From: Nanobdellota archaeon
GTDB taxonomy: Archaea > Nanobdellota > Nanobdellia > Pacearchaeales > GW2011-AR1
NCBI GenBank assembly: GCA_043810695.1
Contig: JBDRNV010000002.1
Span: forward strand, 5,015 to 69,014
Length of the DNA: 64,000 nucleotides
Direction: 5' to 3'
The position numbers and the translations under genes are program-made. Below the pieces are notes generated by a model that saw only the letters and a program-made list of their open reading frames with translations, did not search any database and was not told where the DNA came from. Shown here in pieces: positions 818 through 36,963 of the stretch. Numbering within the stretch: the first letter of the stretch is position 1; each line of letters begins with the position of its first letter.

Positions 818-983
818 TGTCTATTACCATAATAATAAAGAAGACAACTAATAGAATAATAATCATAGGAAAAAGAGTTTTCTTTATTTTTTTTCCACCC
901 AGCTCTGCTAAAATAAGATATCCTATTAGCAGAACAGTCAAAAATATAGGTGAAATATCTCCTACATTATTCAAAGTTATCAT
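801..983 (-). CDS. small membrane protein, unknown function
   Basis: 60-aa ORF with two hydrophobic helices, overlaps start of downstream CPBP gene. Confidence 0.3.
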   Translation of the reverse strand: MITLNNVGDISPIFLTVLLIGYLILAELGGKKIKKTLFPMIIILLVVFFIIMVIDIASKF

Positions 984-1044
984 TAAATAAACTAAAGATA
1001 TGCTTATTTAAAGTTTTTTTGATTTCTCTCTATAATGAATCAAA

Positions 1045-1077
1045 CAACACCAGTTTCCCATCTTTATCCCTGAGAAA
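1045..1077. repeat. copy a of nuclease-gene 3' end
   Basis: acaacaccagtttcccatctttatccctgagaaa; differs at about 5 of 34 positions from copy b, more diverged from the true end. Confidence 0.7.
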
Positions 1078-1210
1078 TGTCTAAAACATTTTCAATGTTC
1101 TTCAAATCCTGCCATTTAATAAAGAAACATTTAAATAGTTTTGTTATATTAATATTACAATTGTAAATAAAATATTACATATGTAATAAAAAAATAACGC
1201 TAAAGAGAGC

Positions 1211-1735
1211 ATGCTAAATAAATACAGCAGATACAGGGTTTTAAGGGTTTTTTTGCAAAAACCAACAGAAAGTTTTGGATTAAGGGAAATCGGTCGTCTT
1301 AGCAAATTATCTCCACCATCAGTGATTAAGTATCTAAAAGAGTTTGAATTAGATGGGCTAATAATCAAAACAGAAAAAAAAGGAATTCCCTCTTATCAAG
1401 CAGCCAAAGAAAATGAAGATTTTATCTTTTATAAAAAGGTAGATATTTTATATGAACTTCATAGTTCTGGTCTTGTCGACTATTTGTGGCAGAAATTAGG
1501 CCCAAATGCAATAATTTTATATGGAAGCCATGCAAAAGGGGAAGCTGCAGAAAACTCTGACATTGACATATTTATTATAGGAAAAGATAAAGATATTGTT
1601 CTGGCAGAATTTGAGAAAAAATTAGGTAGAGAAATACATTTGATGTTTGATAATAATGTAAAAAACATTCCGAGTGAACTTAAAAATAACCTAATCAACG
1701 GAATTATATTAAAAGGTTATTTTAAGGTGTTTTAA
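1211..1735 (+). CDS. wHTH + minimal nucleotidyltransferase (MNT-type, HEPN/MNT module)
   Basis: 'ILYGSHAKGEAAENSDIDIFIIG' = GS...DxD NTase motif; N-terminal winged-helix-like region; paralog at 2841..3368. Confidence 0.75.
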   Translation: MLNKYSRYRVLRVFLQKPTESFGLREIGRLSKLSPPSVIKYLKEFELDGLIIKTEKKGIPSYQAAKENEDFIFYKKVDILYELHSSGLVDYLWQKLGPNAIILYGSHAKGEAAENSDIDIFIIGKDKDIVLAEFEKKLGREIHLMFDNNVKNIPSELKNNLINGIILKGYFKVF

Positions 1736-2139
1736 TGATAATCAAAGTTTTTCCAGATAAAGAAAAAGCAAAGTCTATTCTAAAAATGGCCAATTCAAGG
1801 GAGCAATTTCTGAAAGACATGGAAAAAATAAAAATTTATTCAACAATAATTACTGAGAATTATTACGAAATAATTAAGGAGCTTTGTATAGCTGTAATCT
1901 TAACTGATGGTTATAAGGCCATTGGAGAAAATGCTCATAAAGAATTAATTGATTTTATGCGAAGATACAAAGAATTCAATGATTTTGAGATAGAAACAAC
2001 CTAGGATCTTAGGATAAGAAGAAATAAAAGCGCCTATGAAGGAAAGCAAATAGAACTAGTTTATCTGGAAAATAACAGGAATACTTTAATTAAGATAATT
2101 TCTAAACTAAAGAAAATTTTAGAGGGAAAACTTGACTAA
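1735..2139 (+). pseudogene. HEPN-domain partner of MNT, interrupted by in-frame TAG at 2002-2004
   Basis: 89-aa ORF stops at TAG; same frame continues 'DLRIRRNKSAYEGKQ...' (HEPN-like R-x-x-RN motif) to TAA at 2137-2139; start overlaps MNT stop (TAATG). Confidence 0.55.
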
Positions 2140-2161
2140 ACAATTATTATCTCTAAAATCC

Positions 2162-2203
2162 TTTTCCACAACACCAGTTTCCCATCTCTGTCCCATAAGA
2201 AAA
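2162..2203. repeat. copy b of nuclease-gene 3' end
   Basis: ttttccacaacaccagtttcccatctctgtcccataagaaaa; 34/41 identical to 3432-3472. Confidence 0.85.
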
Positions 2204-2233
2204 GAAACATTTATAAATAACTTACCATTATTT

Positions 2234-2575
2234 ATGTGTATGAAAATTAGTAAGGAAGACTTGCTTCGCATAAACAAAGGATTTGGAGGAAATCTTAGAA
2301 GCGACTCAAGTCTTGATTTTGCTATTGATAAAATAAACAGCTCAAAATTAGGGTTTTATAATAGATTAGCCTATTTATGGAGAGCAATATTAGTTGACCA
2401 CCCCTTTTCAGATGGTAATAAGAGAACAGCTGTATTTTTAGCATATGCTTTTGCAGAAGAAAGCAAGAAATATGTAGATAGAGATATATTAGTTCATCAA
2501 GCTATTTCAATAGCAAAGAAAAATATCACCAGTATAAGACAAATAGAATGGAGACTTAAAAATGCAATTAAATAA
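2234..2575 (+). CDS. Fic/Doc-family toxin
   Basis: 'HPFSDGNKRTA' = Fic motif HxFx[DE]GNxR; the tracked ORF start at 2132 is a TTG that reads through the repeat, ATG at 2234/2240 is more plausible. Confidence 0.75.
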   Translation: MCMKISKEDLLRINKGFGGNLRSDSSLDFAIDKINSSKLGFYNRLAYLWRAILVDHPFSDGNKRTAVFLAYAFAEESKKYVDRDILVHQAISIAKKNITSIRQIEWRLKNAIK

Positions 2576-2774
2576 AAAAATAATTAATAGGATATTGAAA
2601 AAGAATAAAAAAGCATTTGAAATGCTAGAAAATTACGATAAAACAAGAGAACTTCCATTTCAAAGAAAAAGAATAGATATTACTCTATCAGTGGAAACAC
2701 TAAGAAAACTTAAGGAATTAAAGGAAAAAACAAAAAAATCAATTTCCCAAATTATTGAAGAAAAAATTCAATAG
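2562..2774 (+). CDS. putative ribbon-helix-helix antitoxin-like protein
   Basis: 70 aa; 'RIDITLSVETLRKLKELKEKT' resembles an RHH beta-strand/helix; overlaps Doc stop. Confidence 0.4.
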   Translation: MQLNKKIINRILKKNKKAFEMLENYDKTRELPFQRKRIDITLSVETLRKLKELKEKTKKSISQIIEEKIQ

Positions 2775-2775
2775 C

Positions 2776-2815
2776 TTTTCCAAAAAATCAATTTCCCCTT
2801 CATCCTTCAACAAAA
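2776..2815. repeat. copy c of nuclease-gene 3' end (most diverged)
   Basis: ttttccaaaaaatcaatttccccttcatccttcaacaaaa followed by catttatata. Confidence 0.6.
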
Positions 2816-2840
2816 CATTTATATACCAAAGGGTACTAAA

Positions 2841-3368
2841 ATGTATATTATGGTACAAAGAAGTATACCGAGCTTATTTGCAGTTATTGAAGTCTTCTTT
2901 CAAGAGCCCACAAAAATACATTTTATCAAAGAAATAAGCCGAGAGATAAAACTTGCTCATACTTCTGTGAGAAACATAATAAAATACCTGGAGAAAAATC
3001 ATATAATTGTTAAGAAAAAATCAAAACCATTTGACGGATACACTGCAGATAGAGAGAATGAGGATTTTATCTTCTATAAAAAGGCTTACAATATTTATTC
3101 GTTGAAAGATATAACCCGTGAAATAGTAAATTCTGTTTATCCTTCAGCAATCGTTCTTTTCGGGTCTTATTCTCGCGGAGAAGATGTAGAATCAAGTGAT
3201 ATTGACATATTTGTTCTTTCTAAAGCAAAAAAAGAGATAAATGTCTCCCCATTTGAAAAAAGCCTTAAGAGAAAAATAAATATAATGACTCTCGACAGAA
3301 TTGAAAAACTTGATGAATTAATAAGGAAAAAAATAAATAACGGGACTGTTTTGCATGGTGAAATATGA
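2841..3368 (+). CDS. wHTH + minimal nucleotidyltransferase (second MNT)
   Basis: 'VLFGSYSRGEDVESSDIDIFVLS'; same architecture as 1211..1735. Confidence 0.75.
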   Translation: MYIMVQRSIPSLFAVIEVFFQEPTKIHFIKEISREIKLAHTSVRNIIKYLEKNHIIVKKKSKPFDGYTADRENEDFIFYKKAYNIYSLKDITREIVNSVYPSAIVLFGSYSRGEDVESSDIDIFVLSKAKKEINVSPFEKSLKRKINIMTLDRIEKLDELIRKKINNGTVLHGEI

Positions 3369-3430
3369 TAGAAGACAGAGTATTTAGGATAAACAAAGAT
3401 AAAGAAAGGGCAGAGGATCTTTTTATATAG
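3365..3430 (+). pseudogene. 21-codon remnant of a HEPN partner gene
   Basis: ATGA overlap with MNT stop as in the first pair; 'MIEDRVFRINKDKERAEDLFI*' parallels 'MIIKVFPDKEKAKS..' then ends where the nuclease gene end begins. Confidence 0.4.
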
Positions 3431-4175
3431 ATTTCCACAGCACCAATTTCCCTTTTTCATCCCATAAGAAAATCGTGTCTCCTGTTTCTGTTAAATCTAA
3501 TTCAAAAGAAACTTCTTCTCCGTTGCCCAATGTTTTTTCCTGGAAGATTGTGTTGTTTCTTCCTTCTGCTTTTATTCTCCATCCAGTTATATCACATGAA
3601 AAATCACAGATATTTTCCAATGTCTCAGAATCTTTCAGTATTATGCAAGAAGCACATTTATGCGATGAAGCTTCGCAGAGATTAATATTACTATTAATAC
3701 AGCTATCCCAGGCTTTAGTAAATTCTGAATAATGCTTATCTTTGCCAGAAGGAAAATAATAATTACCAAATCCATTTTCTACCATTTTAATATTAATATT
3801 CTCATTTTCTAAAAAAACATATGCAAGCGTTCTGTAATATTTATCATAGCGCTCTTTTCCAAATTCAAGCAGAACTGTTTTATTGAAAACCAGCTGTTCA
3901 AGAAATTCTTTTGCCTCTAAATAATATAACTCTCCGCGTTCAGGTGTGTTAATTCCTAAAAGCCTTATACTTGTGTCATTAGACTCAATTGTATCTCCAT
4001 CTATAACTCTATTCACAAAAACTTCTTGTCTTGTATCGAGGAAATTATTAAGTGTGTTATCAAGAATAGGATAATTTAATATAAATAGGGCAAGAATAAG
4101 TGCAATTAACAAAATAATATCCCTTTTCCTAATTGACTTTTGAATAACTTTTTTATTTAACATTAATAATTGCAA
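3423..4175 (-). CDS. membrane-anchored staphylococcal-nuclease (SNase) homolog with C-terminal lamin-tail-like domain
   Basis: N-terminal TM; 'VIDGDTIE...IRLLGINTPE' and 'RYDKYYRTLAYVF' SNase motifs; C-terminal 'ITGWRIKAEG...FLWDEKGKLV' LTD-like. Confidence 0.75.
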   Translation of the reverse strand: MQLLMLNKKVIQKSIRKRDIILLIALILALFILNYPILDNTLNNFLDTRQEVFVNRVIDGDTIESNDTSIRLLGINTPERGELYYLEAKEFLEQLVFNKTVLLEFGKERYDKYYRTLAYVFLENENINIKMVENGFGNYYFPSGKDKHYSEFTKAWDSCINSNINLCEASSHKCASCIILKDSETLENICDFSCDITGWRIKAEGRNNTIFQEKTLGNGEEVSFELDLTETGDTIFLWDEKGKLVLWKSI

Positions 4176-4717: not shown

Positions 4718-5713
4718 ATGCCAGAGATGAGTAATATGATTCTGCTTGCAGATAAGAATTCTAAAGCTTGGAATTTTGCAGAGAAAATTCAAAATTATAT
4801 CTTAACTCAAAAAGGAAATTTGATTCCTCTTCAAGAAGTAGAAATAACTCATTTCAGAAATGGAGAACTTAACGCTCATGTTCCAGAGAATGTTAGAAAA
4901 AAAGATGTTTACTTTATTCACGATTCCACAAAAAATCCACAGGAATGGTGGATAGAACTTATTTTGATAAGAGATCTTTTGCTTTCTTCATCTGCAGGCT
5001 CTATTACTCTTGTTCTTCCAAATATGCTGTATAGCAGGCAGGATAGAAAAGACAAACCTCATGTTCCAATATCAGCCCGAGCTCTTGCAGAATCAATATC
5101 TCAGGGGGTAAGCAGAATTATCACAATGGATTTGCATGCTCCTCAGATTCAAGGATTCTACCCAGCAACAACTCCTTTAGACAATCTTTACAGTTTTCCA
5201 GAAGCTGTTGACTTTCTAAGAAAAAACTTTTATTCAGATTTAGATAATATTGCAATTATTGCTACAGATGCAGGAGGAGCAGGACGTGCAAGAGCTTTTT
5301 TAAAAAAAATGAACAAAATTCAAGAAAAGGATGTTCTAAAACAAAAATATTCTCTTGCTTTAATGGATAAGATAAGGACAAAAACAGGAGAAGTAGAAGA
5401 AATGAAATTAATAGGAGATATTACTAATCAAAATATTTTAGTTGTTGAGGATATTATTGACTCTGGCGGAACATTATGCAAAGCAGCAGAATTATTAAAG
5501 AAAAACGGAGCAAAAAAATTATTCTGCTATGCAACACATGGAATTTTTACAAAAGGCGTATCAGAGCTTTCTAATTGTTATGATGTTATTCTAACAAGCA
5601 ATACTCATTATTCAGAGAACTCAAACGTGAAGATTGTTGATGTTTCCCCTTTATTTGCAGAAGCTGTTTATAGAGCACAAAAAGGACTTTCTATTTCTGA
5701 ATTGTTTGGATAG
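4718..5713 (+). CDS. prs: ribose-phosphate pyrophosphokinase
   Basis: 'FRNGELNAHV', 'RQDRKD', 'VVEDIIDSGGTL' PRPP-synthase motifs. Confidence 0.9.
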   Translation: MPEMSNMILLADKNSKAWNFAEKIQNYILTQKGNLIPLQEVEITHFRNGELNAHVPENVRKKDVYFIHDSTKNPQEWWIELILIRDLLLSSSAGSITLVLPNMLYSRQDRKDKPHVPISARALAESISQGVSRIITMDLHAPQIQGFYPATTPLDNLYSFPEAVDFLRKNFYSDLDNIAIIATDAGGAGRARAFLKKMNKIQEKDVLKQKYSLALMDKIRTKTGEVEEMKLIGDITNQNILVVEDIIDSGGTLCKAAELLKKNGAKKLFCYATHGIFTKGVSELSNCYDVILTSNTHYSENSNVKIVDVSPLFAEAVYRAQKGLSISELFG

Positions 5714-5715
5714 AT
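5679..5715. repeat. prs 3' end (genuine), left copy of a 37-nt perfect direct repeat
   Basis: aaaaaggactttctatttctgaattgtttggatagat, identical to 6528-6564. Confidence 0.9.
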
Positions 5716-5739
5716 ATCTTTTGAATTAAAATTTAGATT

Positions 5740-5760
5740 ATGAGGGTGAAAGGATTCGAC
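5740..5760 (-). pseudogene. fragment of the tRNA-Leu 3' end (T-arm/acceptor)
   Basis: atgagggtgaaaggattcgac vs atgcgggtgaaaggattcgaac at 6573-6594. Confidence 0.7.
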
Positions 5761-5860
5761 AAAAAGGAATTGCGAATTATTATACAAATCTTTAAATATG
5801 TATATTATTTTTGAGCGGTTGTTTAAAATTATATTCCAAAAATAATTCAGGACAAATAAA

Positions 5861-6247
5861 ATGAAATTTAGCTCAACACCAGCGATGCAGGCAATAGGTT
5901 GTGTGACTAGTTTAGTTAGCCTAGGTGCTTTTGCAAGTGGTATTTATCAAGGGATTTCTAATTCAAAAGGTATTGAAATAGAACCAAATACGCTAATATT
6001 AATAAGATATGGCCCTATAGCGCTTAATGGTCTTTTAGGAATTCCTGCAGCACATGCTTTTTCAAGTGATAAAGAAAATTTAGAAGAAATGGTTAATGGT
6101 GCACCACCAAACTTAGATCAACAAGAAGCAGAAGGATGTTCAAAAAGTTATGCAGGTTGCACTTTTCCTTTTATAGGTGTTGTAGCTACATCTCTTATTG
6201 AATATGCTGGTTATTTGGTCGGCGGTGCTATTGGTGCATCAGTATGA
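5861..6247 (+). CDS. Gly/Ala-rich membrane protein, unknown
   Basis: 128 aa, hydrophobic N- and C-terminal segments; ATGA-coupled to yidD. Confidence 0.4.
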   Translation: MKFSSTPAMQAIGCVTSLVSLGAFASGIYQGISNSKGIEIEPNTLILIRYGPIALNGLLGIPAAHAFSSDKENLEEMVNGAPPNLDQQEAEGCSKSYAGCTFPFIGVVATSLIEYAGYLVGGAIGASV

Positions 6248-6507
6248 AACTAGAAAAAATACTTCAATCATTAGAGATATTATCAATTAAAGGATATAAG
6301 AAAACAACTTCTCCTATATACTCTCTTTTAAATTCTTTTAATATCAATCCTTTTCGATGCAGATATACACCTTCTTGTTCACAATATGCTGAACAAGTAA
6401 TCAAAGAATGGGGTGCCTATAAAGGAACGTTTATGGCTTTAAAGAGAATTATGAGATGTAATCCTTATGGTGGATTTGGTTATGACCCTGTTCCTAAGAA
6501 AAAATAA
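6244..6507 (+). CDS. yidD: YidD-like membrane protein insertion efficiency factor
   Basis: 'CRYTPSCSQYAEQVIKEWGAYKGTFMALKRIMRCNPYGGFGYDPVP' matches the conserved YidD core. Confidence 0.75.
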   Translation: MKLEKILQSLEILSIKGYKKTTSPIYSLLNSFNINPFRCRYTPSCSQYAEQVIKEWGAYKGTFMALKRIMRCNPYGGFGYDPVPKKK

Positions 6508-6527
6508 TATGCAAAGGTAGGGGTAGA

Positions 6528-6564
6528 AAAAAGGACTTTCTATTTCTGAATTGTTTGGATAGAT
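6528..6564. repeat. second (non-coding) copy of the prs 3' end
   Basis: 37/37 identity with 5679-5715, stop codon included. Confidence 0.9.
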
Positions 6565-6573
6565 TCAAAGCCA

Positions 6574-6657
6574 TGCGGGTGAAAGGATTCGAACCTTCGC
6601 AGGCACTAAGCCACAAGATCTTAAGTCTTGTCCGTTTGACCGCTCCGGCACACCCGC
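6574..6657 (-). tRNA. tRNA-Leu (anticodon UAA), class II, no encoded CCA
   Basis: Hand fold: GCGGGTG acceptor, anticodon stem CAAGA/TCTTG with loop CTTAAGA, long variable arm, T-arm GAAGGTTCGAATCCTTT. Confidence 0.85.
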
Positions 6658-6798
6658 ATGAATGGCGCCGCTGCGACGTTCATCACGCTACAGCGTTTGT
6701 TGTATTTCTCAGAAGTTATGTTGCTTAAAAAAGTTTCTTATTAACTTAATAGCTTAATTTAGAGCAACCTTTATTAATACTTTATACTTTTTTTCTTT

Positions 6799-8505
6799 AT
6801 GAAAAGAGCTGTGATTAATGTTCTGAAAAAAGCACTGAATTCTAAAGGAGTTCATTATACAGAAGAGCAGATAGAAAAACTTATTGAAATTCCTCCTAGT
6901 TTAGGAATGGGGGATTATGCTTTTCCATGTTTCTCGCTTTCTGATAAATTAAAAGATGATCCTGCTAGAATAGCTATTGAAATAAGAGAAGAAATAGGAG
7001 AACCTTCTGCAACAGAATTTGCAGATATAGAAACAGAAGGTCCTTATTTGAATTTTTTTCTTAATCGAAAAAGTCTTGCAAGACAAACCGTTTGGGATAT
7101 AATAACCTGGAAAAAAAATTATGGAAAAGGAAAATCAGGAAAAAGAAAAAGAACAATGGTTGAATTTCCAAGCCCAAATACAAACAAACCATTGCATTTA
7201 GGACATTTAAGAAACATGGCAATTGGAGAAAGCATTTCAAGAATTCTTGAGTTTAATGGGGAAAAAGTTATACGAGCAAATCTTAATAGCGACAGAGGAA
7301 TTCATATCTGCAAATCAATGCTCGCGTATCAAAAATGGGGAAGAGAAAAAACTCCAGATAAGAAAAAAATAAAATCAGACCACTTTGTTGGAAATTTTTA
7401 TGTTAAATTTGAAAAAAAGAAGAAAAAGAAACTTGAAGAAGAAGCTCAGGAATTGCTTAGAAAATGGGAAGCAGGAGATAAACGAACTCTTCTATTATGG
7501 AAGTTAATGAATAACTGGGCTTTAGAAGGTTTTGCAGAAACTTACAAAAAATTTGGAATAAAGCATGATGTAACTTATTTTGAAAGCAAAATATATTCAA
7601 AAGGAAAAGAAATTATCGAATACGGAATAAAAAAGAGAATATTTGAAAAGTCAAAAAGTGGAGAAACAAAAATTGATTTAAAAAAAGAAGGTTTGGGAGA
7701 AAAAATTCTTTTAAGAAAAGATGGAACAGCTTTGTATATTATACCTGATTTAGCTTTGGCAAAAATAAAATTCAAAGATTATAAACTAAATCGTTCTATT
7801 TATGTAGTCGGTAATGAGCAGGAATATCATTTCAAAGTTTTATTTTCTATTCTCGAAAGATTAGGATTTCGAAAAGAAGGCAAAGAAATGAAGCATCTTT
7901 CATATGGAATGGTTAATCTTCCTTCTGGACGAATGAAATCAAGAGAAGGAATTGTTGTTGATGCAGATGATTTGATTAAAGATGTAAAATCTATTGCAGA
8001 AAAAGAACTTAAAAAAAGAGAAAAACTCCGTAAGACAGAACTCGAAAAAAGAAGTTCTATAATTGCTTTGGCTGCAATAAAATATATGCTATTAAAACAA
8101 GATATAAAGAAAAATATACTTTTCAATCCAAAAGAATCTGTTTCTTTTGATGGTGATACAGGACCATATATTCAGTATAGTTATGCAAGAGCAGGTTCTA
8201 TATTAAAAAAAGCACCTGAACAGAAAAAATTTGAGGTTTATGAACTAGAGGACAAAGAACTTGAGCTTGTAAAAAAACTTTCTCAGTTTCCAGAAGCTGT
8301 TTTGAATGCAGGCAAAAATTTAAATCCAGCAATTATTGCAAATTATTCTTATGAACTTGCTCAAATATTCAACGAATTTTATCATACCTGCAAAGTTATA
8401 GGTTCTGAACAAGAAGCATTTCGACTTACTCTTGTTCAATCTTTCAGGCAAGTAATAAAAAATTCTTTGAAACTGCTAGGAATTGATGTAGTTGAGAAAA
8501 TGTAA
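6799..8505 (+). CDS. argS: arginyl-tRNA synthetase
   Basis: 'PSPNTNKPLHLGHLRN' HIGH region; C-terminal 'YIQYSYARAGSILKKA' anticodon-binding region. Confidence 0.9.
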   Translation: MKRAVINVLKKALNSKGVHYTEEQIEKLIEIPPSLGMGDYAFPCFSLSDKLKDDPARIAIEIREEIGEPSATEFADIETEGPYLNFFLNRKSLARQTVWDIITWKKNYGKGKSGKRKRTMVEFPSPNTNKPLHLGHLRNMAIGESISRILEFNGEKVIRANLNSDRGIHICKSMLAYQKWGREKTPDKKKIKSDHFVGNFYVKFEKKKKKKLEEEAQELLRKWEAGDKRTLLLWKLMNNWALEGFAETYKKFGIKHDVTYFESKIYSKGKEIIEYGIKKRIFEKSKSGETKIDLKKEGLGEKILLRKDGTALYIIPDLALAKIKFKDYKLNRSIYVVGNEQEYHFKVLFSILERLGFRKEGKEMKHLSYGMVNLPSGRMKSREGIVVDADDLIKDVKSIAEKELKKREKLRKTELEKRSSIIALAAIKYMLLKQDIKKNILFNPKESVSFDGDTGPYIQYSYARAGSILKKAPEQKKFEVYELEDKELELVKKLSQFPEAVLNAGKNLNPAIIANYSYELAQIFNEFYHTCKVIGSEQEAFRLTLVQSFRQVIKNSLKLLGIDVVEKM

Positions 8506-20449: not shown

Positions 20450-20587
20450 CGCCTCAGGCAGGAATCGAACCTGCGAACCCCGAAGGGTCGGGATCTTTGC
20501 GTTTTCTCCAATAAAGGAGATGTCGTAAGAAGAACCTTGGTTCTTTTTACTTAGCAATCCCGTGCAATACCATTATGCGACTGAGGC
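20450..20587 (-). tRNA. tRNA-Ser (anticodon GCU) with ~57-nt intron
   Basis: Hand fold: GCCTCAG acceptor, CGGGA/TCCCG anticodon stem, loop TTGCTA|A, long variable arm ACCCTTCGGGGTTC, T-arm GCAGGTTCGATTCCTGC; 138 nt minus 81 nt mature. Confidence 0.75.
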
Positions 20588-22248: not shown

Positions 22249-23049
22249 ATGGAAACCGAGAATCTGGGATATGTTAAAGGATTGGGAGAAATTCATAGAA
22301 TTAATGCTCCATTTGTAGTGCAATTGGGAGCTTTTAGAGAAATAGGAATAAAGGCACCTGTAAGCGTAAGAGATACTTCTTTAATAAGGCTCAGCGGAAA
22401 ATCCACAGAAGGAACAAGGACATGTCACGCTCCTGTTTACCTTAAGAATTCTCCTACAATAGTTGCGAGAATGTCTCCTTTGGTAAGAAATTTAGGAATG
22501 GCACAAAAAGCAGTGAATGCTCACAAAAGCAGTGAATATCCTGTTTTTGGTAGCTCGATTTATGCCCAGTGGGAAAAGATTGCAAAACAGGACAAGGGAA
22601 AGAAGCCTGAGAAAAGAAGGGCAATCATACTTCCTGAAAGAAAAGATTTTGACATACATAGGGATTCAGACGAAGCAGAATTTTTCTGGCAGGACAAAAG
22701 AAAAGAATATTTTAAAAGATTTGTTTCAGCAGATAAAGTCATAGCGTATCAAATCGACCCAGAAACGGTTGATTCTCAAGATGGAGCAATTGTGAATTAT
22801 CTCTGGTTCGACGATCCCGAGGATGGTTCTTACTTGTACCTTAGGAGCAGGAGCTTGTACTATGACGACAGGGCTTTCGGGGTGTTGGAGAAAACCAGCG
22901 AAGCTGGTTTGCAAAAAATTTCAGGAAATTTGGTCAGGCATTATACTCAAAGAGAAGCAAAAAAATATACTAATATTCTTCAGGATGTTATGTCTGGAAA
23001 AACAGGAACTTCAAAATTAGAAAAAGTGCTTAAGCATTTTAAAAAATAA
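22249..23049 (+). CDS. DGR-type variable (target) protein candidate
   Basis: Contains the variable repeat 22801-22872 near its C-terminus; locally higher G+C by eye than neighbours. Confidence 0.6.
   Translation: METENLGYVKGLGEIHRINAPFVVQLGAFREIGIKAPVSVRDTSLIRLSGKSTEGTRTCHAPVYLKNSPTIVARMSPLVRNLGMAQKAVNAHKSSEYPVFGSSIYAQWEKIAKQDKGKKPEKRRAIILPERKDFDIHRDSDEAEFFWQDKRKEYFKRFVSADKVIAYQIDPETVDSQDGAIVNYLWFDDPEDGSYLYLRSRSLYYDDRAFGVLEKTSEAGLQKISGNLVRHYTQREAKKYTNILQDVMSGKTGTSKLEKVLKHFKK
22801..22872 (+). other. variable repeat (VR) of a diversity-generating-retroelement-like pair
   Basis: 72-nt ungapped match to 23310-23381; 10 of 11 mismatches lie at adenines of the other copy. Confidence 0.75.
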
Positions 23050-23309
23050 AAACAGAAAGCAATTTAAACATAAGTTTCTTTTTTTATCTGCCTTGACTCT
23101 TATTTGAAGCATATGTACAAAAACATATGCTGGTGAGAATAATAGAAAGGCCACACGCCAGTTTATTAAGGCATTATTCAAGTTTATTTTAAGTCATAAA
23201 ATTCAGAAGCGACTTGCGAGAAGCTTCGGTGCGCAAATTAAATTTTGCTGTGTGCAGGCAAGATTCCTGACGTGAAAATTATTCATGAGATAAATTGGCT
23301 ACAAAAAGT

Positions 23310-23577: not shown

Positions 23578-26442
23578 ATGGCTTACATAAAAAAACTGGT
23601 GATACATGGCTTTAAGAGTTTTCCAAGAAAAACAGAGATTCCTTTTACAAAAGGAATAAATATAATTTTAGGCCCGAATGGCTCTGGAAAATCAAACGTA
23701 TCTGATGCTTTATGCTTTGTTCTGGGAAGACTAAGCATTAAATCAATGCGTGCTGCAAAAGCAGGCAATTTAATTTTTATGGGAACAAAAGAAGCCTCTC
23801 CTGCAAAAGAAGCCTCTGTTGAAATAATTTTTGATAATTCAGATAAAACATTTTCTTTGGATAAAAATGAAATAATTATTAAGAGAATTGTAAGAAGAAA
23901 CGGGCAAAGCATTTACAAAATTGATAATGAAACAAAAACAAGACAGGAAGTTCTTTCTTTGCTTGCTCAGGCTGGAATAGATCCACAAGGATTTAATATT
24001 ATTCTTCAGGGAGAGATACAGAGTTTTGTGAGAATGCAGCCAGAAGATAGAAGAACAGTAATTGAAGAAGTTGCAGGAATATCTGTTTATGAATCAAGAA
24101 AAGAAAAGTCACTTCACGAGCTTGAAAAGACAGAAGACAGACTTAAAGAAATCAGCTCTATTCTCAGAGAGAGAACTTCTTATTTGAATAATCTTGAAAA
24201 AGAAAGACAGCAGGCACTAAGATTCAAGAAACTTGAGGCAGATATAAAAAAGTTTAGAGCAAGTATAATCTATTTCAACCTTCATAAAAAAAGAAAAGAA
24301 AATGAGAAAATAAACTCTGATATAGAACAAAGAAATAATGAAATAGAAAAAATAAAGAAAGTAATCATTGGAATTGAAACAGAAACAAAAAATTTTTCTT
24401 TTAAAATAGATAACATAAATTCTGAAATACAAAAATCTACAGGACTTGAACAGGAAAAACTTAATCAAGAAATAGCCAATTTAAGGGCAGAACTTGCAGG
24501 GCTTAATGTAAAACTTGAAAACCAAGAATCAAGACTTTCTAATTTATTAAAACAAAAAGAAGAATTCCAAAAATCGCTGAAAGAATCAGAGCTTTCAATA
24601 AAAGAGCTTCAGAAAGAGTCTCCTACACCAGAAAGAAATGCAAAAGAAATAGAGGAAAAAAAGAAAGAACTTGAGAAGCTTGAAGAAAAAAGAAAAAAAT
24701 TCTACATGATTAAATCAGAAATAAACTCTGTCAAAGAAAGAATTGAAGATAAAAATTCTCTTCTTCAGAATTATACAAACGAATCTAATTTTTTAATAAA
24801 GCAAATTGAATCCCTTTCAATACAAATTTTTGATAAAAAAGCAAATTCTGAAAAACTAGGCAGGTTTAAAATCTCTTTATCAGAAAAAAAAGAATTCCTT
24901 AATAGTTTAGTAAAAAAAGAAATAGAACTTGAAAAAAATAGTTCTATTAATTTATCAGAAATAGAAAATCAAAAAAGAATTATAGAAAAAATATCAAAAT
25001 TAGATATATGTCCTGTATGTAAAAGCAAAATAACTCCAAAACATATGGAAGAAATAAAAAAAGAAATCATCCCCCACATAGAATCTTTAAAAAAGACAAT
25101 AGAATCCTCTGATTCTGAATTAAAAACAATATATCAGAAAAAAGAAATAATAATAAAAGATATCGATGAACTAGCTCAGCAGATATCAAAAACAGATACA
25201 GATCTAAATAAACTTTCAAATATAAATGATAAAAAAAATCAGATTAAAATTTTATATGAAAAATTAGAAAATCTAAAAAAAGAGCTAGCAGAATTAACTA
25301 AGAAAAAAACTAATCTTGAAAGAATTTTTGAAACAGACTCTAATATAGAGCAAAAATATGAGACTTTGAAAATAGAAGTTCAGGAAATATCTCTAAGAAC
25401 CAAAAAAACACTAAAATCAGAAGTTGAATTTAAACAGAGAGAAATTGAAAGAATAAAAATTTCTTTGAAACAAATATCTCGGGAAGAGACTGATGCAAAT
25501 GAAGAATTATTCTCTCTTAAGAAAATATTTGAAGAAAAGAATAAAATTTTAACCAAAAAAAGACAGCAGGAAGAAGAATTAAATAAAAAATTCGAAGAAA
25601 TGCTTTCTGAAAAAGAGAGATTGCAGAAAAAAATAAGAGAAAAAGAAACAGATACTCTTTCAAAAAAACATGCAATTCATATTATAGAACTTGAAATAAA
25701 TGAATTCAAAATTGAAAAAGCAAGAGTTGATGCAGAGATAGAGAATTTTGAAACAGAGATGCTTGAATTTTCAAATGTTGAAATAATAAAGACAAATAAG
25801 GATGTTCTGGTTGAAAGGCTTGCTAAATCACAGGAAATTATTTCAAGAGTAGGAACTGTCAATCTCCGCTCCCTTGAAGTTTATGATTCAATAAAAAAAG
25901 AGTATGATGTTGTAAAAGAAAAAGCAGGAATAATAGAAAAAGAAAAAGATAATATATTAAAAGTAATACATGAAATAGATGTAAAAAAGAAAAAATCATT
26001 TATTCAGACACTTAAAAAAATAAACGAGCTTTTTTCAAGAAATCTATCTCAATTGATTCCAAAAGCAGAGGTTTTCCTTGAGCTTGAAAACAACCAAAAC
26101 CCGTTTGAACCAGGTTCTGGAGTTCAGATAATTGTAAAGACAGGACACGGGAAATACTTTGATGTTAAATCTCTTTCAGGAGGAGAACAGACTCTTGTTG
26201 CTCTCTCGCTTATATTTGCGATTCAGGAATATCGTCCTTACTACTTTTATCTTCTAGACGAAATTGATGCAGCTCTTGACAAAAGAAATTCAGAAAGGCT
26301 TGCCGGGCTTCTTAACAAATACATGCTTAATGGGCAGTATATAGTTATCACACACAATGATGAAATTATTTCAAAGGCAACAAATCTTTATGGAATAAGT
26401 ATGCATGATGGAATTTCTAAAATTATTAGTCTTAAAGTGTAG
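23578..26442 (+). CDS. smc: SMC-family ATPase with central CxxC in place of a hinge domain
   Basis: SMC head motifs 'GPNGSGKSN', 'ILQGEIQSF', 'EEVAGISVYESRK', 'LSGGEQTLVALSLIFAIQ', 'LLDEIDAALD'; CPVC at aa 478-481 of 954 (25009-25020). Confidence 0.8.
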   Translation: MAYIKKLVIHGFKSFPRKTEIPFTKGINIILGPNGSGKSNVSDALCFVLGRLSIKSMRAAKAGNLIFMGTKEASPAKEASVEIIFDNSDKTFSLDKNEIIIKRIVRRNGQSIYKIDNETKTRQEVLSLLAQAGIDPQGFNIILQGEIQSFVRMQPEDRRTVIEEVAGISVYESRKEKSLHELEKTEDRLKEISSILRERTSYLNNLEKERQQALRFKKLEADIKKFRASIIYFNLHKKRKENEKINSDIEQRNNEIEKIKKVIIGIETETKNFSFKIDNINSEIQKSTGLEQEKLNQEIANLRAELAGLNVKLENQESRLSNLLKQKEEFQKSLKESELSIKELQKESPTPERNAKEIEEKKKELEKLEEKRKKFYMIKSEINSVKERIEDKNSLLQNYTNESNFLIKQIESLSIQIFDKKANSEKLGRFKISLSEKKEFLNSLVKKEIELEKNSSINLSEIENQKRIIEKISKLDICPVCKSKITPKHMEEIKKEIIPHIESLKKTIESSDSELKTIYQKKEIIIKDIDELAQQISKTDTDLNKLSNINDKKNQIKILYEKLENLKKELAELTKKKTNLERIFETDSNIEQKYETLKIEVQEISLRTKKTLKSEVEFKQREIERIKISLKQISREETDANEELFSLKKIFEEKNKILTKKRQQEEELNKKFEEMLSEKERLQKKIREKETDTLSKKHAIHIIELEINEFKIEKARVDAEIENFETEMLEFSNVEIIKTNKDVLVERLAKSQEIISRVGTVNLRSLEVYDSIKKEYDVVKEKAGIIEKEKDNILKVIHEIDVKKKKSFIQTLKKINELFSRNLSQLIPKAEVFLELENNQNPFEPGSGVQIIVKTGHGKYFDVKSLSGGEQTLVALSLIFAIQEYRPYYFYLLDEIDAALDKRNSERLAGLLNKYMLNGQYIVITHNDEIISKATNLYGISMHDGISKIISLKV
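26401..26442. repeat. smc 3' end (genuine), left copy
   Basis: 42 nt, 41/42 identical to 26471-26512. Confidence 0.9.
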
Positions 26443-26470
26443 CATAACTTCGTCCAAGCTTGGCCGTCGT
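26443..26470. repeat. 28-nt near-palindromic element (CCAAGCTTGG core)
   Basis: cataACTTCGTCCAAG|CTTGGCCGTCGT; related elements at 56115-56153 and 52339-52366. Confidence 0.7.
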
Positions 26471-26512
26471 ATGCATGATGGAATTTCTAAAATTATTAGT
26501 CTTAAAGTATAG
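26471..26512. repeat. second copy of smc 3' end
   Basis: atgcatgatggaatttctaaaattattagtcttaaagtatag; followed by a TATA-like ttatatac and the RelBE-like cassette. Confidence 0.9.
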
Positions 26513-27028: not shown

Positions 27029-27322
27029 TTAATTCGTAGAATATTTGCTAATTATTGGCTCACTATAAAATTCATATAATCTATTATCCCCACTTACAAC
27101 ATTAATTGCCTGTATTGTTCTCTGCCTTTGTTCTTTAGGTATAGAATCTAAAATTCTTTCCAACTCATTAGCCTTTTTTTGTTGCTCTCGTTTAAATTTC
27201 TCTGATTCCTCTCTCTGTGTTTCTCTTATGTTTTTGACGATTTTATATGATGAAGTAACAAATAATATTCCACATGCTAAAATTCCACCCCCACAAATAT
27301 AATTCAAAATTTCATTTTCCAT
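27029..27322 (-). CDS. small membrane + coiled-coil protein
   Basis: N-terminal TM, charged helix. Confidence 0.35.
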   Translation of the reverse strand: MENEILNYICGGGILACGILFVTSSYKIVKNIRETQREESEKFKREQQKKANELERILDSIPKEQRQRTIQAINVVSGDNRLYEFYSEPIISKYSTN

Positions 27323-27418: not shown

Positions 27419-28033
27419 ATGAACAAATCAGAACTAATAGAACAGCTAAAAAGAATGGGTTTTTCAGAAAAAATCCTTGAGGCTTTTTCTTTAATTAAAA
27501 GAGAAAAATTTGTTTCAGAAGAGCTTCAAAAAAAAGCTTATGATGACACAGCTCTTCCTATTGGACACGGACAAACAATTTCTCAGCCATATACAATTGC
27601 TTTAATGCTTTCAGAACTGGATTTAAAAGAAGGACAAAAAATACTTGAAATAGGCTCTGGTTCTGGTTATGTTCTTGTACTTCTTTCCTATATACTTGGA
27701 CAAAAGAGTAAAATATTTGGGTTAGAAGTGATAAAACAGCTTGCAAAAAAATCAAAAGAAAATCTTGAGGATTATGGAAATATAAAGATTTACAATAAAA
27801 ATGGTTTTAACGGATTGCCTGATGAAGCACCTTTTGATAGAATTCTTATTAGTGCAGCTGCCCGTGAAATTCCAAAGAAAATTTTAAATCAGCTTAAGGA
27901 TGGTGGAATTCTTGTTGCTCCCAAAGGGCCTGTTTTTGAGCAGAATATTGTTGTGATTCAGAGACAAGGAGACAAATTTGTTACAAAAACAGAAATTCCT
28001 GGTTTTGTCTTTGTGCCGTTTGTTGAAGGGTAG
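27419..28033 (+). CDS. pcm: protein-L-isoaspartate O-methyltransferase
   Basis: 'GHGQTISQPYTIALMLSEL' and 'ILEIGSGSGY'. Confidence 0.85.
   Translation: MNKSELIEQLKRMGFSEKILEAFSLIKREKFVSEELQKKAYDDTALPIGHGQTISQPYTIALMLSELDLKEGQKILEIGSGSGYVLVLLSYILGQKSKIFGLEVIKQLAKKSKENLEDYGNIKIYNKNGFNGLPDEAPFDRILISAAAREIPKKILNQLKDGGILVAPKGPVFEQNIVVIQRQGDKFVTKTEIPGFVFVPFVEG
28001..28033. repeat. pcm 3' end (genuine)
   Basis: 20-nt core tttgtgccgtttgttgaagg (28010-28029) is identical to 28713-28732. Confidence 0.85.
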
Positions 28034-28070
28034 AAAGATTTAAGTATATACAAGTATTACATGTATTACA

Positions 28071-28322
28071 ATGGACGATGCCATAATATCTTTAAGAGTA
28101 GACAAAGAACTTAGAAAGAAAATGAGAGCGCAGGAGGAAGTTAACTGGAGTGCTATCTTAAGAAGAGCTATAATGGAAAATATTGAAAATAAAGAAAAAG
28201 TTGATTTGGAAAAAAGAAAAAAAGCCATAGAGGCAATGGATAAACTTAGAAAATCCAGGGCATTTGACCATGGCAAAAATAGCACATTAAGAATAAGAGA
28301 ATGGAGAAACAAGAGAAGGTAA
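28071..28322 (+). CDS. vapB: VapB-like antitoxin
   Basis: 'ISLRVDKELRKKM' RHH-like N-terminus; overlaps PIN gene. Confidence 0.6.
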   Translation: MDDAIISLRVDKELRKKMRAQEEVNWSAILRRAIMENIENKEKVDLEKRKKAIEAMDKLRKSRAFDHGKNSTLRIREWRNKRR

Positions 28323-28708
28323 TAGATGCTTCAGTAATAGTTAAATGGTTTCTTGATGAAGAAAATTCTGATACTGCAAGAATATTAAGGTCGGAATTAG
28401 CAAAAGAAAATTTAATATTGATTGTTCCTGATTTATTATTCTTAGAAGTCTTAAATACTTTAAGATATAAAATGGTGAAAAAAGATGATCTAATAAAGGC
28501 TAATGAGATACTGGCTGGACTGAGTTTAAAGACAGTAAGAGTAAATAAAGAAATTATGTCAAAGACAATAGAAAACTCTGTGAAATACAAAATAACTATT
28601 TACGATGCCTTGTACATCACATTGGCACAAATTCATGGGACATTTTTGGTAACTGCAGATAAAGAACTGTATAAAGTTCCTAATGTGATTGCCTTGGAGA
28701 AGGTTTAG
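28301..28708 (+). CDS. vapC: PIN-domain VapC toxin
   Basis: 'VIDASVIVKWFLDEE' N-terminal acidic PIN motif; later 'YDALYITLA'. Confidence 0.75.
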   Translation: MEKQEKVIDASVIVKWFLDEENSDTARILRSELAKENLILIVPDLLFLEVLNTLRYKMVKKDDLIKANEILAGLSLKTVRVNKEIMSKTIENSVKYKITIYDALYITLAQIHGTFLVTADKELYKVPNVIALEKV

Positions 28709-28736
28709 AGTTTTTGTGCCGTTTGTTGAAGGAGAA
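28702..28736. repeat. copy of pcm 3' end closing the vapBC cassette
   Basis: ggtttagagtttttgtgccgtttgttgaaggagaa. Confidence 0.85.
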
Positions 28737-36160: not shown

Positions 36161-36308
36161 AAAATAGATAAGAAAGGAGAAGATAAAAAGGTTTTGAATT
36201 GATTTGTTGAATCATCTTATTGTATAAATATTTATGTCTGAGTTAAATAAGTTGTTAGTTATTAAGATAATAATATCAAATCAAAAAATTCAACAACTAA
36301 AGACCCAA

Positions 36309-36346
36309 CAGATTAATATTAATGTCTGTTGTTGCCGAAAGTCTTA
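36309..36346. repeat. copy of dnaG 3' end
   Basis: acagattaat...tgtctgttgttgc vs acagactaat...tgtctgttgttgc at 36967-37002 (7-nt gap). Confidence 0.7.
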
Positions 36347-36380
36347 AAAACTTCGAAACTCTGTTATAATTATATACGCT

Positions 36381-36403
36381 CATCCTTGCTTCGGCAAGGG
36401 ATG
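36381..36403 (+). promoter_or_regulatory. UUCG-tetraloop hairpin in the leader of the NYN gene
   Basis: catccttgc-ttcg-gcaagggatg (9 bp, one bulge) between TATA-like ttataattatata and the ATG at 36416. Confidence 0.45.
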
Positions 36404-36415
36404 GGCATTATTTAA

Positions 36416-36961
36416 ATGAAAAGGGTTGCTGTTTTTATAGATGGTAACAATTTTTATTTTGGCTTAAGAAAATTATACGGCAAAAATAAAAGTTTAAAGT
36501 ATTTTGATTTTGAAAAATTCTCTCAATTTTTGGCAGGAAAAGATAAGGTTGTGGATATCTATTATTATAATGCTTTACTTGATAAGGAGCATAATCTAGG
36601 GAAATATAAGAGTCAAAAAGAATTTCTTGAAAAACTAAAAGAAACCCCTAATTTACATCTTGTTCTGTGTAAATTACTTAAAAGGAACATAACTGGAACA
36701 GACAAATTCTATTACATAATAAAGGAAGATGATATAAATATGGCTGTAGATATGGTGGAAAATGCCTACGATGATAATTTTGATATTTCCATTCTTGTAT
36801 CTGGTGATGGTGATTTTGTTCCAGCAGTCCGTTCTGTAAAGAAAAAGGGAAAAATTGTAAAAAATATTTACTTCAAAAATAGCTCATCAAGAAATCTTAA
36901 AAGTTTCTGTGATGAATCTTTTGATTTAACAAAAGAGATATTAGATAAATTCTTTAATTGA
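36416..36961 (+). CDS. NYN/LabA-like nuclease-domain protein
   Basis: 'VAVFIDGNNFYFGL' and 'ILVSGDGDFVPAV' NYN acidic motifs. Confidence 0.7.
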   Translation: MKRVAVFIDGNNFYFGLRKLYGKNKSLKYFDFEKFSQFLAGKDKVVDIYYYNALLDKEHNLGKYKSQKEFLEKLKETPNLHLVLCKLLKRNITGTDKFYYIIKEDDINMAVDMVENAYDDNFDISILVSGDGDFVPAVRSVKKKGKIVKNIYFKNSSSRNLKSFCDESFDLTKEILDKFFN

Positions 36962-36963
36962 AA

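Follow-up and report, generated by a model that had tools for sequence, protein, structure and literature searches.

Toxin-antitoxin cassettes stacked at the 3' end of a nuclease gene and separated by displaced copies of that end in a Pacearchaeota-type archaeon

In the 64-kb stretch of A+T-rich archaeal chromosome analyzed here (hereafter, the window), the gene of a membrane-anchored SNase-family nuclease is followed by three small toxin-antitoxin (TA) cassettes, and the last ~41 nt of the gene occur four times, once as its working end and three times as displaced copies among the cassettes. The displaced tails are former working gene ends, which differ from the functional ones as coding alleles do and are not drifting duplicates. 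We consider, with a probability of about 0.6, that small TA cassettes with promoters of their own have accumulated behind the 3' end of the nuclease gene as a polymorphic stack, and that the tails in it act as portable homology and not as a dedicated att site. The host is a tiny groundwater archaeon of the Pacearchaeota type (DPANN); the core genes in the window include those of EF-1alpha, RNA polymerase B, RNase HII, a DnaG-like Toprim protein and similar proteins, and the closest relatives of the window proteins are named Pacearchaeota or Nanoarchaeota by their sources. DPANN archaea possess tiny genomes with few recognisable mobile elements, and the turnover of their defence and addiction genes is poorly understood.

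Displaced copies of the nuclease gene end

A repeat search of the whole window detected a 41-nt direct-repeat family with four members, at 1039-1079, 2163-2203, 2777-2817 and 3432-3472, which are called copies d, c, b and a, respectively (Table 1). Identity relative to copy c is 83% (34/41) for copy a, 71% for copy d and 61% for copy b. The 19-nt core CAACACCARTTTCCCATYT, with up to three mismatches allowed, has three matches in the 64 kb against 0.08 expected, and none of 100 shuffled sequences reached three; copy b is too diverged to be recognised by this pattern. Each of the four copies, when translated from the minus strand, yields the conserved C-terminal strand of what we call the SNase-LTD family, in which the nuclease is joined to a C-terminal lamin-tail-like domain (LTD), scored in some of the relatives as the lamin-tail domain PF00932. 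This family is large, with >1100 homologues, and the gene is widespread in Pacearchaeota and Nanoarchaeota; its last beta-strand is strongly conserved in the alignment, as GDTIFLRDxxGKLVLWxxY followed by the stop codon. The bit scores of the copies, obtained with a hidden Markov model (HMM) of the family C-terminus, are to be read against a best wrong-strand noise of 8.3 bits in 161 comparison loci (~1.2 Mb). Copies a and c also share a rare terminal isoleucine, found in 2 of 29 family members. The fourfold presence of the nuclease 3' end, which had been noted in the initial annotation, is therefore borne out both by the repeat search and by the HMM scores.

The number of cassettes at the locus varies between strains. 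Exact-protein look-ups reached contigs of the same population from other samples (L199-L202), and one of these, L201, matches window positions 974-2203 at 100% identity, from the end of the membrane-protein gene through copy d and cassette C to copy c. Past copy c, it runs straight into the body of the nuclease gene, identical to window positions 3473-3510 (38/38), and the nuclease that it encodes ends with GDTIFLWDRDGKLVLWKRILEIIIV before the stop codon. Because L201 joins copy c to the gene body in frame, it is copy c that serves the nuclease gene as its working end in that strain, which is without the 1269 bp of window positions 2204-3472, i.e., cassettes B and A with copies b and a. Copies a and c have 13 identical nt at the breakpoint, which are too few for L201 to be an assembler artefact. 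L200 and L202 show the window arrangement at 100% identity (cassette C with copies d and c), and L199 contains cassette C from 1098 onward behind a different left flank, together with the same junction between copy c and cassette B as in the window, again at 100% identity. Serial insertion at the nuclease 3' end had been proposed in the initial annotation, with a lack of strain variation in cassette number named as the observation that would speak against it; the finding that L201 carries cassette C only came out in favor of insertion. We also considered contig breaks as a sign of strain variation, but the difference between the 15 breaks within 700 bp downstream of SNase genes and the 10 upstream, among 80 genome loci, was unconvincing.

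The manner in which functional and displaced tails differ tells what the latter used to be. Seven such pairs have 33 synonymous and 35 non-synonymous codon differences, while random substitution is expected to give 9.6 synonymous ones, and none of 5000 simulations reached 33. The synonymous fraction alone was dropped as a test for drift, since the drift model itself predicts ~40% synonymous differences. In the drift simulation, all, 80% or 50% of the observed differences were placed randomly on the functional tail, and the products were scored with the family HMM. Simulated tails dropped to 10-25 bits, while the displaced tails scored close to their functional counterparts (52.5 versus 54.1 in L009, 30.0 versus 36.2 for copy c, and 27.0 versus 30.5 in L161; P <= 0.04 for each pair, with 0/300 for L009). 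Moreover, both the frame and the position of the stop codon are kept in copy d and in the displaced tails of L009, L161, the DnaG-like gene and an M48 peptidase gene, which are described below.

Other explanations of the repeats were tried and rejected. Folded as single-stranded DNA, the four junction regions gave z values of -1.6, -1.9, +0.6 and -0.7 relative to shuffled sequences and showed no hairpins, and no Rfam family matched at the repeats; a structured RNA or a terminator was dismissed on these grounds, and so was the reservation, made at the outset, that the copies might be parts of a longer non-coding RNA. As for a viral or plasmid origin, a search of IMG/VR with the SNase alignment returned distant nucleases only, and the DNA pattern of the tail returned unrelated enterobacterial phage genes only.

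Table 1. Positions in the window of the nuclease locus and of the other genes with displaced tails
Feature	Position	Strand	Description
Nuclease gene (host gene)	3423-4175	minus	Pfam SNase, E 6e-16; membrane-anchored; C-terminal LTD
Copy a, working nuclease 3' end in the window strain	3432-3472	minus	encodes FLWDEKGKLVLWKSI and stop; 50.1 bits
Copy b, displaced, most diverged tail	2777-2817	minus	encodes LLKDEGEIDFLEKL; 19.8 bits
Copy c, displaced tail	2163-2203	minus	encodes FLWDRDGKLVLWKRI..; 29.4 bits
Copy d, outermost displaced tail	1039-1086	minus	encodes FLRDKDGKLVLFDSL and stop; 21.2 bits; frame and stop kept
Cassette A	2841-3430	plus	MNT, NTP_transf_2/Polbeta, with N-terminal winged helix-turn-helix (wHTH) (2841-3368); 21-codon HEPN-partner stub (3365-3430)
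Cassette A promoter-like motif	2813-2823		AAACATTTATA
Cassette B	2205-2774	plus	promoter motif (2205-2215), Doc/Fic toxin (2240-2575), RHH antitoxin (2562-2774)
Cassette C	1098-2139	plus	promoter motif (1125-1135), MNT (1211-1735, Pfam), HEPN partner (1735-2139)
Downstream flank, conserved	110-983	minus	60-aa membrane protein (801-983) and CPBP/Rce1-like protease (110-817; Pfam Rce1-like)
PRPP-synthetase gene	5679-6593 (span of tails and insert)	plus	last 35 nt again at 6528-6562 (35/35)
SMC/Rad50-like gene	26399-26512 (span of tails and filler)	plus	last 44 nt duplicated (43/44, the single difference synonymous); 26-nt G+C-rich filler between
PCMT gene	28007-28732 (span of tails and insert)	plus	23 nt near gene end again at 28710-28732 (22/23)
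DnaG-like/Toprim gene (36964-38127)	36295-37009 (span of tails)	minus	last ~41-48 nt, 78% identical, again at 36295-36346

Cassettes and their promoters

All the cassette genes lie on the plus strand, opposite to the nuclease gene, and their content as first annotated, i.e., MNT with an HEPN remnant, Doc with RHH, and MNT with a TAG-broken HEPN, stood up to analysis with Pfam and profile comparison. The partner open reading frames (ORFs) of MNT were not recognised as HEPN by Pfam, but a profile of the partner family, which includes the ORF at 1735-2139 and the stub at 3365-3430, matched Pfam-positive HEPN proteins with 98% probability and an E value of 2e-13 (hhalign). The arrangement is that of type II MNT/HEPN systems, where MNT precedes an HEPN RNase with an Rx4-6H motif, and intact relatives have R-x-F-R-H. 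The 134-codon partner in cassette C has RRN instead of RH and is, in addition, broken by an in-frame TAG at 2002-2004, which is also present in four contigs from other samples. The stub in cassette A, homologous to the first ~20 codons of a 134-aa partner, ends exactly at the nuclease stop codon; the cassette shows 87% nucleotide identity to the intact cassette of MNT and 134-aa partner that lies convergent to the SNase gene of L190, and the homology stops at window position ~3425. Two of the three cassettes are thus already decaying, one with a truncated and the other with a stop-interrupted HEPN, and judging from the sequences, both HEPN toxins of the window look inactive. In cassette C, an inverted repeat of 24 nt (79% complementary, arms 8 nt apart) is situated at 1143-1198 between the promoter motif and the ATG, where it is a candidate operator for the wHTH-MNT protein; no such leader is present in cassettes A and B.

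Cassette B appears intact (Fic, E 4e-8; RHH_1, E 1e-5) and combines a toxin of the Fic/Doc fold with a small DNA-binding antitoxin, as do type II systems of the Phd/Doc kind. Its gene order is the reverse of that of classical phd-doc in that the toxin comes first, and this order is the same in all contexts examined. Doc has >1100 homologues, many of which are 73-87% identical. In five contexts, the conserved Doc-RHH unit extends from ~3 nt upstream of GAAACATTTA through the RHH stop codon. These precise borders, from promoter to stop, were considered as proof of a mobile unit and rejected as uninformative because neutral flanks would be unrecognisable at ~80% nucleotide identity anyway.

The sequence AAACATTTAWA, which resembles a B recognition element (BRE) with a TATA box, directly follows copies b (2813) and c (2205) and is also found at 1125. 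In cassettes A and B, it precedes the first ATG by 20-30 nt; the leaderless-type spacing pointed out in the initial annotation is therefore real as a spacing of sequence elements, and it would fit leaderless transcripts. The motif of Doc-RHH stays with the cassette in the five contexts whether or not a tail copy adjoins it, and that of cassette A is also found in L190 behind a different upstream sequence. Because the motif accompanies the cassettes into other contexts, it belongs to them and not to the tails. The related proposal that the purine-rich end of the repeat doubles as a BRE is not supported for cassette B; in front of cassette A, the last tail bases of copy b do overlap the BRE position and might contribute to the promoter. 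As a candidate for a common motif at cassette-tail junctions, AAATGTTT was discarded; it adjoins copies b, c and d and is not found at the tails of L009, L161, L179 or the DnaG case.

Displaced tails at other genes and in other genomes

The nuclease gene is not the only one in the window with displaced tails. When the last 60 nt of every ORF were compared with the 3.5 kb downstream, four further genes were found to have them, giving five host genes in total (Table 1). Control scans of 5' ends against upstream sequence, 5' ends against downstream sequence and tails against upstream sequence found no comparable duplication in the window; the one match there was that of a spurious ORF overlapping copy c with copy d, and those in the other loci were tandem paralogues. 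At the DnaG-like gene, the copies flank an NYN-domain cassette (36416-36961, plus strand), and the displaced tail reads ATTDININLLGL and the functional one ATTDTKIKLISL, each up to the stop codon. At the PCMT gene, a VapB-like/PIN VapC pair (28071-28708) lies between the copies, and the distal copy reads five more codons (VEGEFIFL, then stop). The insert at the PRPP (phosphoribosyl pyrophosphate) synthetase gene carries a 128-aa membrane ORF and a YidD-like ORF (6244-6507; PF01809), YidD being typically a bacterial membrane-insertion factor. There, the identical 35-mers are associated with spacers of 26 and 10 nt that are unrelated to each other, and the proximal copy is followed by a 21-nt partial 3' end of tRNA-Leu(TAA) (5740-5760), 0.8 kb from the intact tRNA gene (6573-6658).

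Strains of the same population differ at these places, too. In L195, the 70-nt tail-plus-filler behind the SMC gene is missing and the distal copy has been kept; the next 2455 bp match the window at 100% identity. L197 has a ParE allele of 94% identity beside 100% identical DNA, and it is without the 97-aa gene at 27029-27322 (minus strand), located between the ParE and PCMT genes. These differences are recombination breakpoints at cassette borders.

Similar arrangements exist in other genomes. An NYN cassette is flanked by displaced SNase tails both in L009 (66 nt) and in L161, which at 74% protein identity is the closest relative; such tails also flank a PurM-like gene in L101, a secreted protein in L026 and, as a decayed copy, the MNT cassette in L190. 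The Doc-RHH cassette is convergent to an SNase gene in L041 and L181-186 and has other contexts in L187 and L189. In L179 and L180, a Doc-RHH cassette with 87% protein identity to that of the window is convergent to an M48 peptidase gene, of which a displaced 51-nt tail lies just upstream of the cassette promoter; the two tails read HPPFEERVKRLRETGF and HPPFEERVRRLRAMEF, each with its stop codon, and have six synonymous differences. The association of one cassette family with an M48 tail instead of an SNase tail argues against a dedicated att site. At a given locus, moreover, the cassettes are better conserved than the host gene (RHH 85% and Doc 60% versus SNase 49% and PRPP synthetase 65% in L041; cassette A MNT 83% versus SNase 62% in L190), which indicates their horizontal spread.

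Several observations concern the neighborhood of these loci and the comparison genomes. At one end, the array in the window is bordered by SNase, a 120-aa ORF, for which an exact-protein look-up gave no match, and PRPP synthetase, and at the other end by the 60-aa ORF and the CPBP protease. The latter two flank genes also occur in L063, 2.1 kb downstream of the SNase gene and with other cassettes between. Behind the SNase gene of L002, four small opposite-strand genes (6782-7777; DUF2080-like, RHH with 80% identity to that of the window, HicA and HicB-like) are stacked with junctions of 8-56 nt, one of which holds the promoter motif GAAACATTTAAA, and with no detectable tail copies. The SNase gene of L190 (3706-3860), called as 217 aa, is frameshifted ~30 codons before its end with the C-terminal strand intact in the other frame, so that it is either a pseudogene or the result of a sequencing error. 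In L012 (1764-1904), a thioredoxin-reductase-like gene is apparently split by an 81-nt insertion with a 30-nt duplication (29/30), and its frame resumes after the second copy. The SMC filler (26443-26468), CATAACTTCGTCCAAGCTTGGCCGTC, is unique in the window and holds the palindrome CCAAGCTTGG; its first 10 nt match the start of loxP, and a library artefact is possible for this one case. A G+C-rich hairpin is located between the TATA-like box and the ATG of the NYN cassettes in the window (36383-36405, CATCCTTGCTTCGGCAAGGGATG), L009 (~7400-7440) and L161 (~1795-1830), and it may be a conserved 5' leader structure.

Two RNA genes were also encountered in the window. Rfam assigned 23091-23307 (plus strand), between a 266-aa ORF without a Pfam match (22249-23049) and the SMC gene, to RT-16 RNA (RF03019; 76 bits, gathering score 50). 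The name of this family hints at a connection with reverse transcriptases, but none was seen nearby. With this RNA in mind, we considered whether the tail pairs could be the variable and template repeats of diversity-generating retroelements, but the mismatches are not adenine-specific (A 28, T 17, G 16 and C 10 in functional copies; A 18, T 21, G 20 and C 12 in displaced copies) and no reverse transcriptase was found beside any of the pairs. The other, a tRNA of 138 nt at 20450-20587 (minus strand) that was found by Rfam and missed by ARAGORN, is probably an intron-containing archaeal tRNA.

Formation of the stacks and comparison with known systems

The initial annotation had suggested a single att-like site, which, if taken to mean a site dedicated to recombination, does not agree with these findings: four other host genes and the M48-tailed Doc-RHH cassette show the same pattern, no common core is obvious among the tails of different host genes when they are inspected by eye (no motif search was run), and no integrase was found in the inserts (0.6-1.6 kb) or among the 20 larger ORFs that were scanned in the window, out of a set that also has ~50 smaller or unscanned ones. 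Because there are, in addition, no hairpins, because the repeats range from 23 to >66 nt in length, and because the 70-nt insertion after the SMC gene is not an element, we favor recombination through the homology of the tails. The process might begin with a rare illegitimate event that duplicates the tail of a gene around foreign DNA. Subsequently, a tail copy, either working or displaced, would recombine with a tail copy of a related strain or of an excised circle, and whole cassettes could then be gained, lost and reshuffled as modules, with the reading frame of the host gene always complete. Each addition would give the nuclease gene a new last ~41 nt and move the previous end outward, which would leave a chain of fossil gene ends, and addictive TA modules might be the cargo that survives deletion in streamlined genomes. 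The window corresponds to an L201-type array plus a block of copy a, cassette A, copy b and cassette B, whose junction falls precisely on the 5' edge of copy c, and tail exchange would account for this structure. We infer that recombination was driven by homology or microhomology rather than by an integrase, and the direction, insertion or deletion, that is assigned to any single strain difference has the same inferential standing.

Some points weigh against this explanation. Recombining tails share only short stretches of identity (13 nt for copies a and c, 23 nt in L161), which are a poor substrate for homologous recombination of the RadA type and bear more resemblance to a site-specific core or a microhomology join. 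Copies b and c have their first codon in common (F/L-L-W/K-D), for which a fixed crossover point of a site-specific enzyme acting in trans would be an equally good explanation, and such a recombinase might be encoded outside the 64 kb that were searched. As to how a tail is duplicated de novo in the first place, the cases in which a tail, a filler and a tail follow one another (SMC, L067 and L012) give illustrations but no explanation. A window-like ancestor may have given rise to L201 through a deletion between copies a and c, so that the difference could be a gain or a loss. Furthermore, many stacks behind SNase genes, such as those in L002 and L041, have no detectable tail copies, and therefore the tails are not needed at every junction or decay quickly.

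Classical site-specific integration with accretion, in which the cassette, or a larger element that has since decayed, carried an attP mimicking the gene 3' end and a tyrosine recombinase acted in trans, seems rather unlikely to us, even though much of the pattern resembles it. Each insert is flanked by direct repeats of the target 3' end and the target gene is always restored, as is the case for integrative elements including those like cis-mobilizable elements (CIMEs), and the common first codon of copies b and c could reflect a fixed crossover. The breakpoint at the PRPP/tRNA-Leu site is in the T-loop part of the tRNA, which is a typical target of integrases. An element-borne tail that becomes the working end would also be under selection at the protein level, which fits the codon and HMM tests, and in tycheposons, partial target copies lie between integrations that followed one another (bioRxiv 10.1101/2020.12.28.424599). 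What speaks against such integration, besides the negative integrase search of the inserts and the 20 larger ORFs and the range of repeat lengths, is that at least six unrelated host-gene tails are involved without a shared core visible by eye, that one Doc-RHH family is found with an SNase tail in one genome and with an M48 tail in another, and that the 70-nt tail-plus-filler of the SMC gene is too small for an element.

De novo target-site duplication, where the cassette would be joined into a long staggered break, fill-in would duplicate 23-66 nt and the outer copy would then drift, is still less probable and, as the sole explanation, is already contradicted. It agrees with the young cases, whose copies are near-identical (PRPP 35/35, SMC 43/44, PCMT 22/23, L067 and L012), and with the appearance of copy b and the L190 copy as drifted self-copies, the latter sharing a rare LVGW with its own gene. 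However, copy c is the working end on an identical gene body in L201 while copy a differs from it at 7/41 nt, and thus copies a and c do not come from the duplication of one sequence. The near-native family scores of displaced tails at 19-33% nucleotide divergence and the unrelated spacers between the identical PRPP 35-mers also disagree with it. An integron-like array with attC-type folded sites and IntI is very improbable: compact TA-rich cassettes are stacked at one site, and integrons do exist in Archaea including Nanoarchaeota (PMC9668308), but the junctions do not fold as attC sites do (z -1.9 to +0.6 versus shuffles), the repeat is a direct copy of host coding sequence and not an imperfect palindrome, the cassettes have their own promoters, and IntI was not found beside the array or among the 20 larger ORFs. 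Chance similarity of low-complexity A+T sequence or assembly chimeras of mixed strains, conceivable in an A+T-rich genome with many chance repeats of 14-30 nt and in fragmented assemblies of a mixed population, is scarcely credible and already contradicted by the pattern statistics, HMM scores far above noise, the retention of frame and stop, repeats too diverged for k-mer chimeras and the 100% identical arrangement in the independent assemblies L199, L200 and L202.

Recombination through tail homology might extend beyond this locus. One possibility, which we put forward only tentatively, is a genome-wide capture of cassettes independent of integrases in Pacearchaeota-type DPANN archaea, in which the last 25-70 nt of conserved genes would be exchangeable docking sequences and the recombination machinery of the host would pop any small self-promoted module with such a tail, mostly TA and nuclease genes, in and out and swap it between strains and lineages, so as to be functionally an integron without IntI or attC. 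In the scheme proposed here, accessory cassettes dock at conserved gene ends, the end is replaced each time, and sister strains come to differ by whole cassettes, while the old gene ends persist like dated fossils, from which the sequence of additions can be read. Such a process, if driven by homology, would allow genes to be gained as modules without an integrase, and it would account for the breaking of metagenome assemblies of these organisms at such loci. Displaced tails are also a simple computational marker, because recent insertions in uncultured genomes are found by looking in the downstream region of each gene for a second occurrence of its last 40-60 nt.

Campbell-type insertion-duplication and homology-facilitated illegitimate recombination are laboratory and natural-transformation phenomena in which, as here, a short shared sequence anchors foreign DNA, the anchor is found on both sides, and pop-out restores the empty site. 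The homology at the present loci is, however, very short (13-44 identical nt), and to our knowledge neither process has been described as a recurrent natural builder of cassette stacks at gene ends. Tandem accretion at a gene 3' end is known from the integrative and conjugative elements ICESt1 and ICESt3 and the CIMEs at fda of Streptococcus thermophilus, some units of which are without an integrase. The stacking at the 3' end of a protein gene, the restoration of that gene, the 3'-end copies between units and the existence of units without a recombinase are shared with the array described here, whereas units of 0.6-1.1 kb consisting of a promoter and a TA pair, the lack of an integrase among the 20 larger ORFs scanned in 64 kb, the use of many host genes in one genome and the occurrence of one cassette family with the tails of different genes are not.

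The tycheposons of Prochlorococcus target tRNA genes, carry tyrosine recombinases and leave partial tRNA copies between successive integrations (bioRxiv 10.1101/2020.12.28.424599). They resemble the present case in the streamlined genome, the degenerate remnants and the heterogeneous populations, but here the units are separated by tails of protein genes, still legible as coding alleles, the modules carried are minimal TA pairs, and the host is a DPANN archaeon. Integron arrays (PMC9668308) likewise grow on one side and consist of compact TA-rich cassettes, in contrast to which the cassettes in the window have their own promoters and a repeat that is the 3' end of the neighboring gene, with no attC hairpins or IntI found. 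Compared with the accretion at gene 3' ends and the tycheposons known so far, what is new is the combination of sub-kilobase self-promoted units, no apparent recombinase, many host genes, and separators that were once working gene ends.

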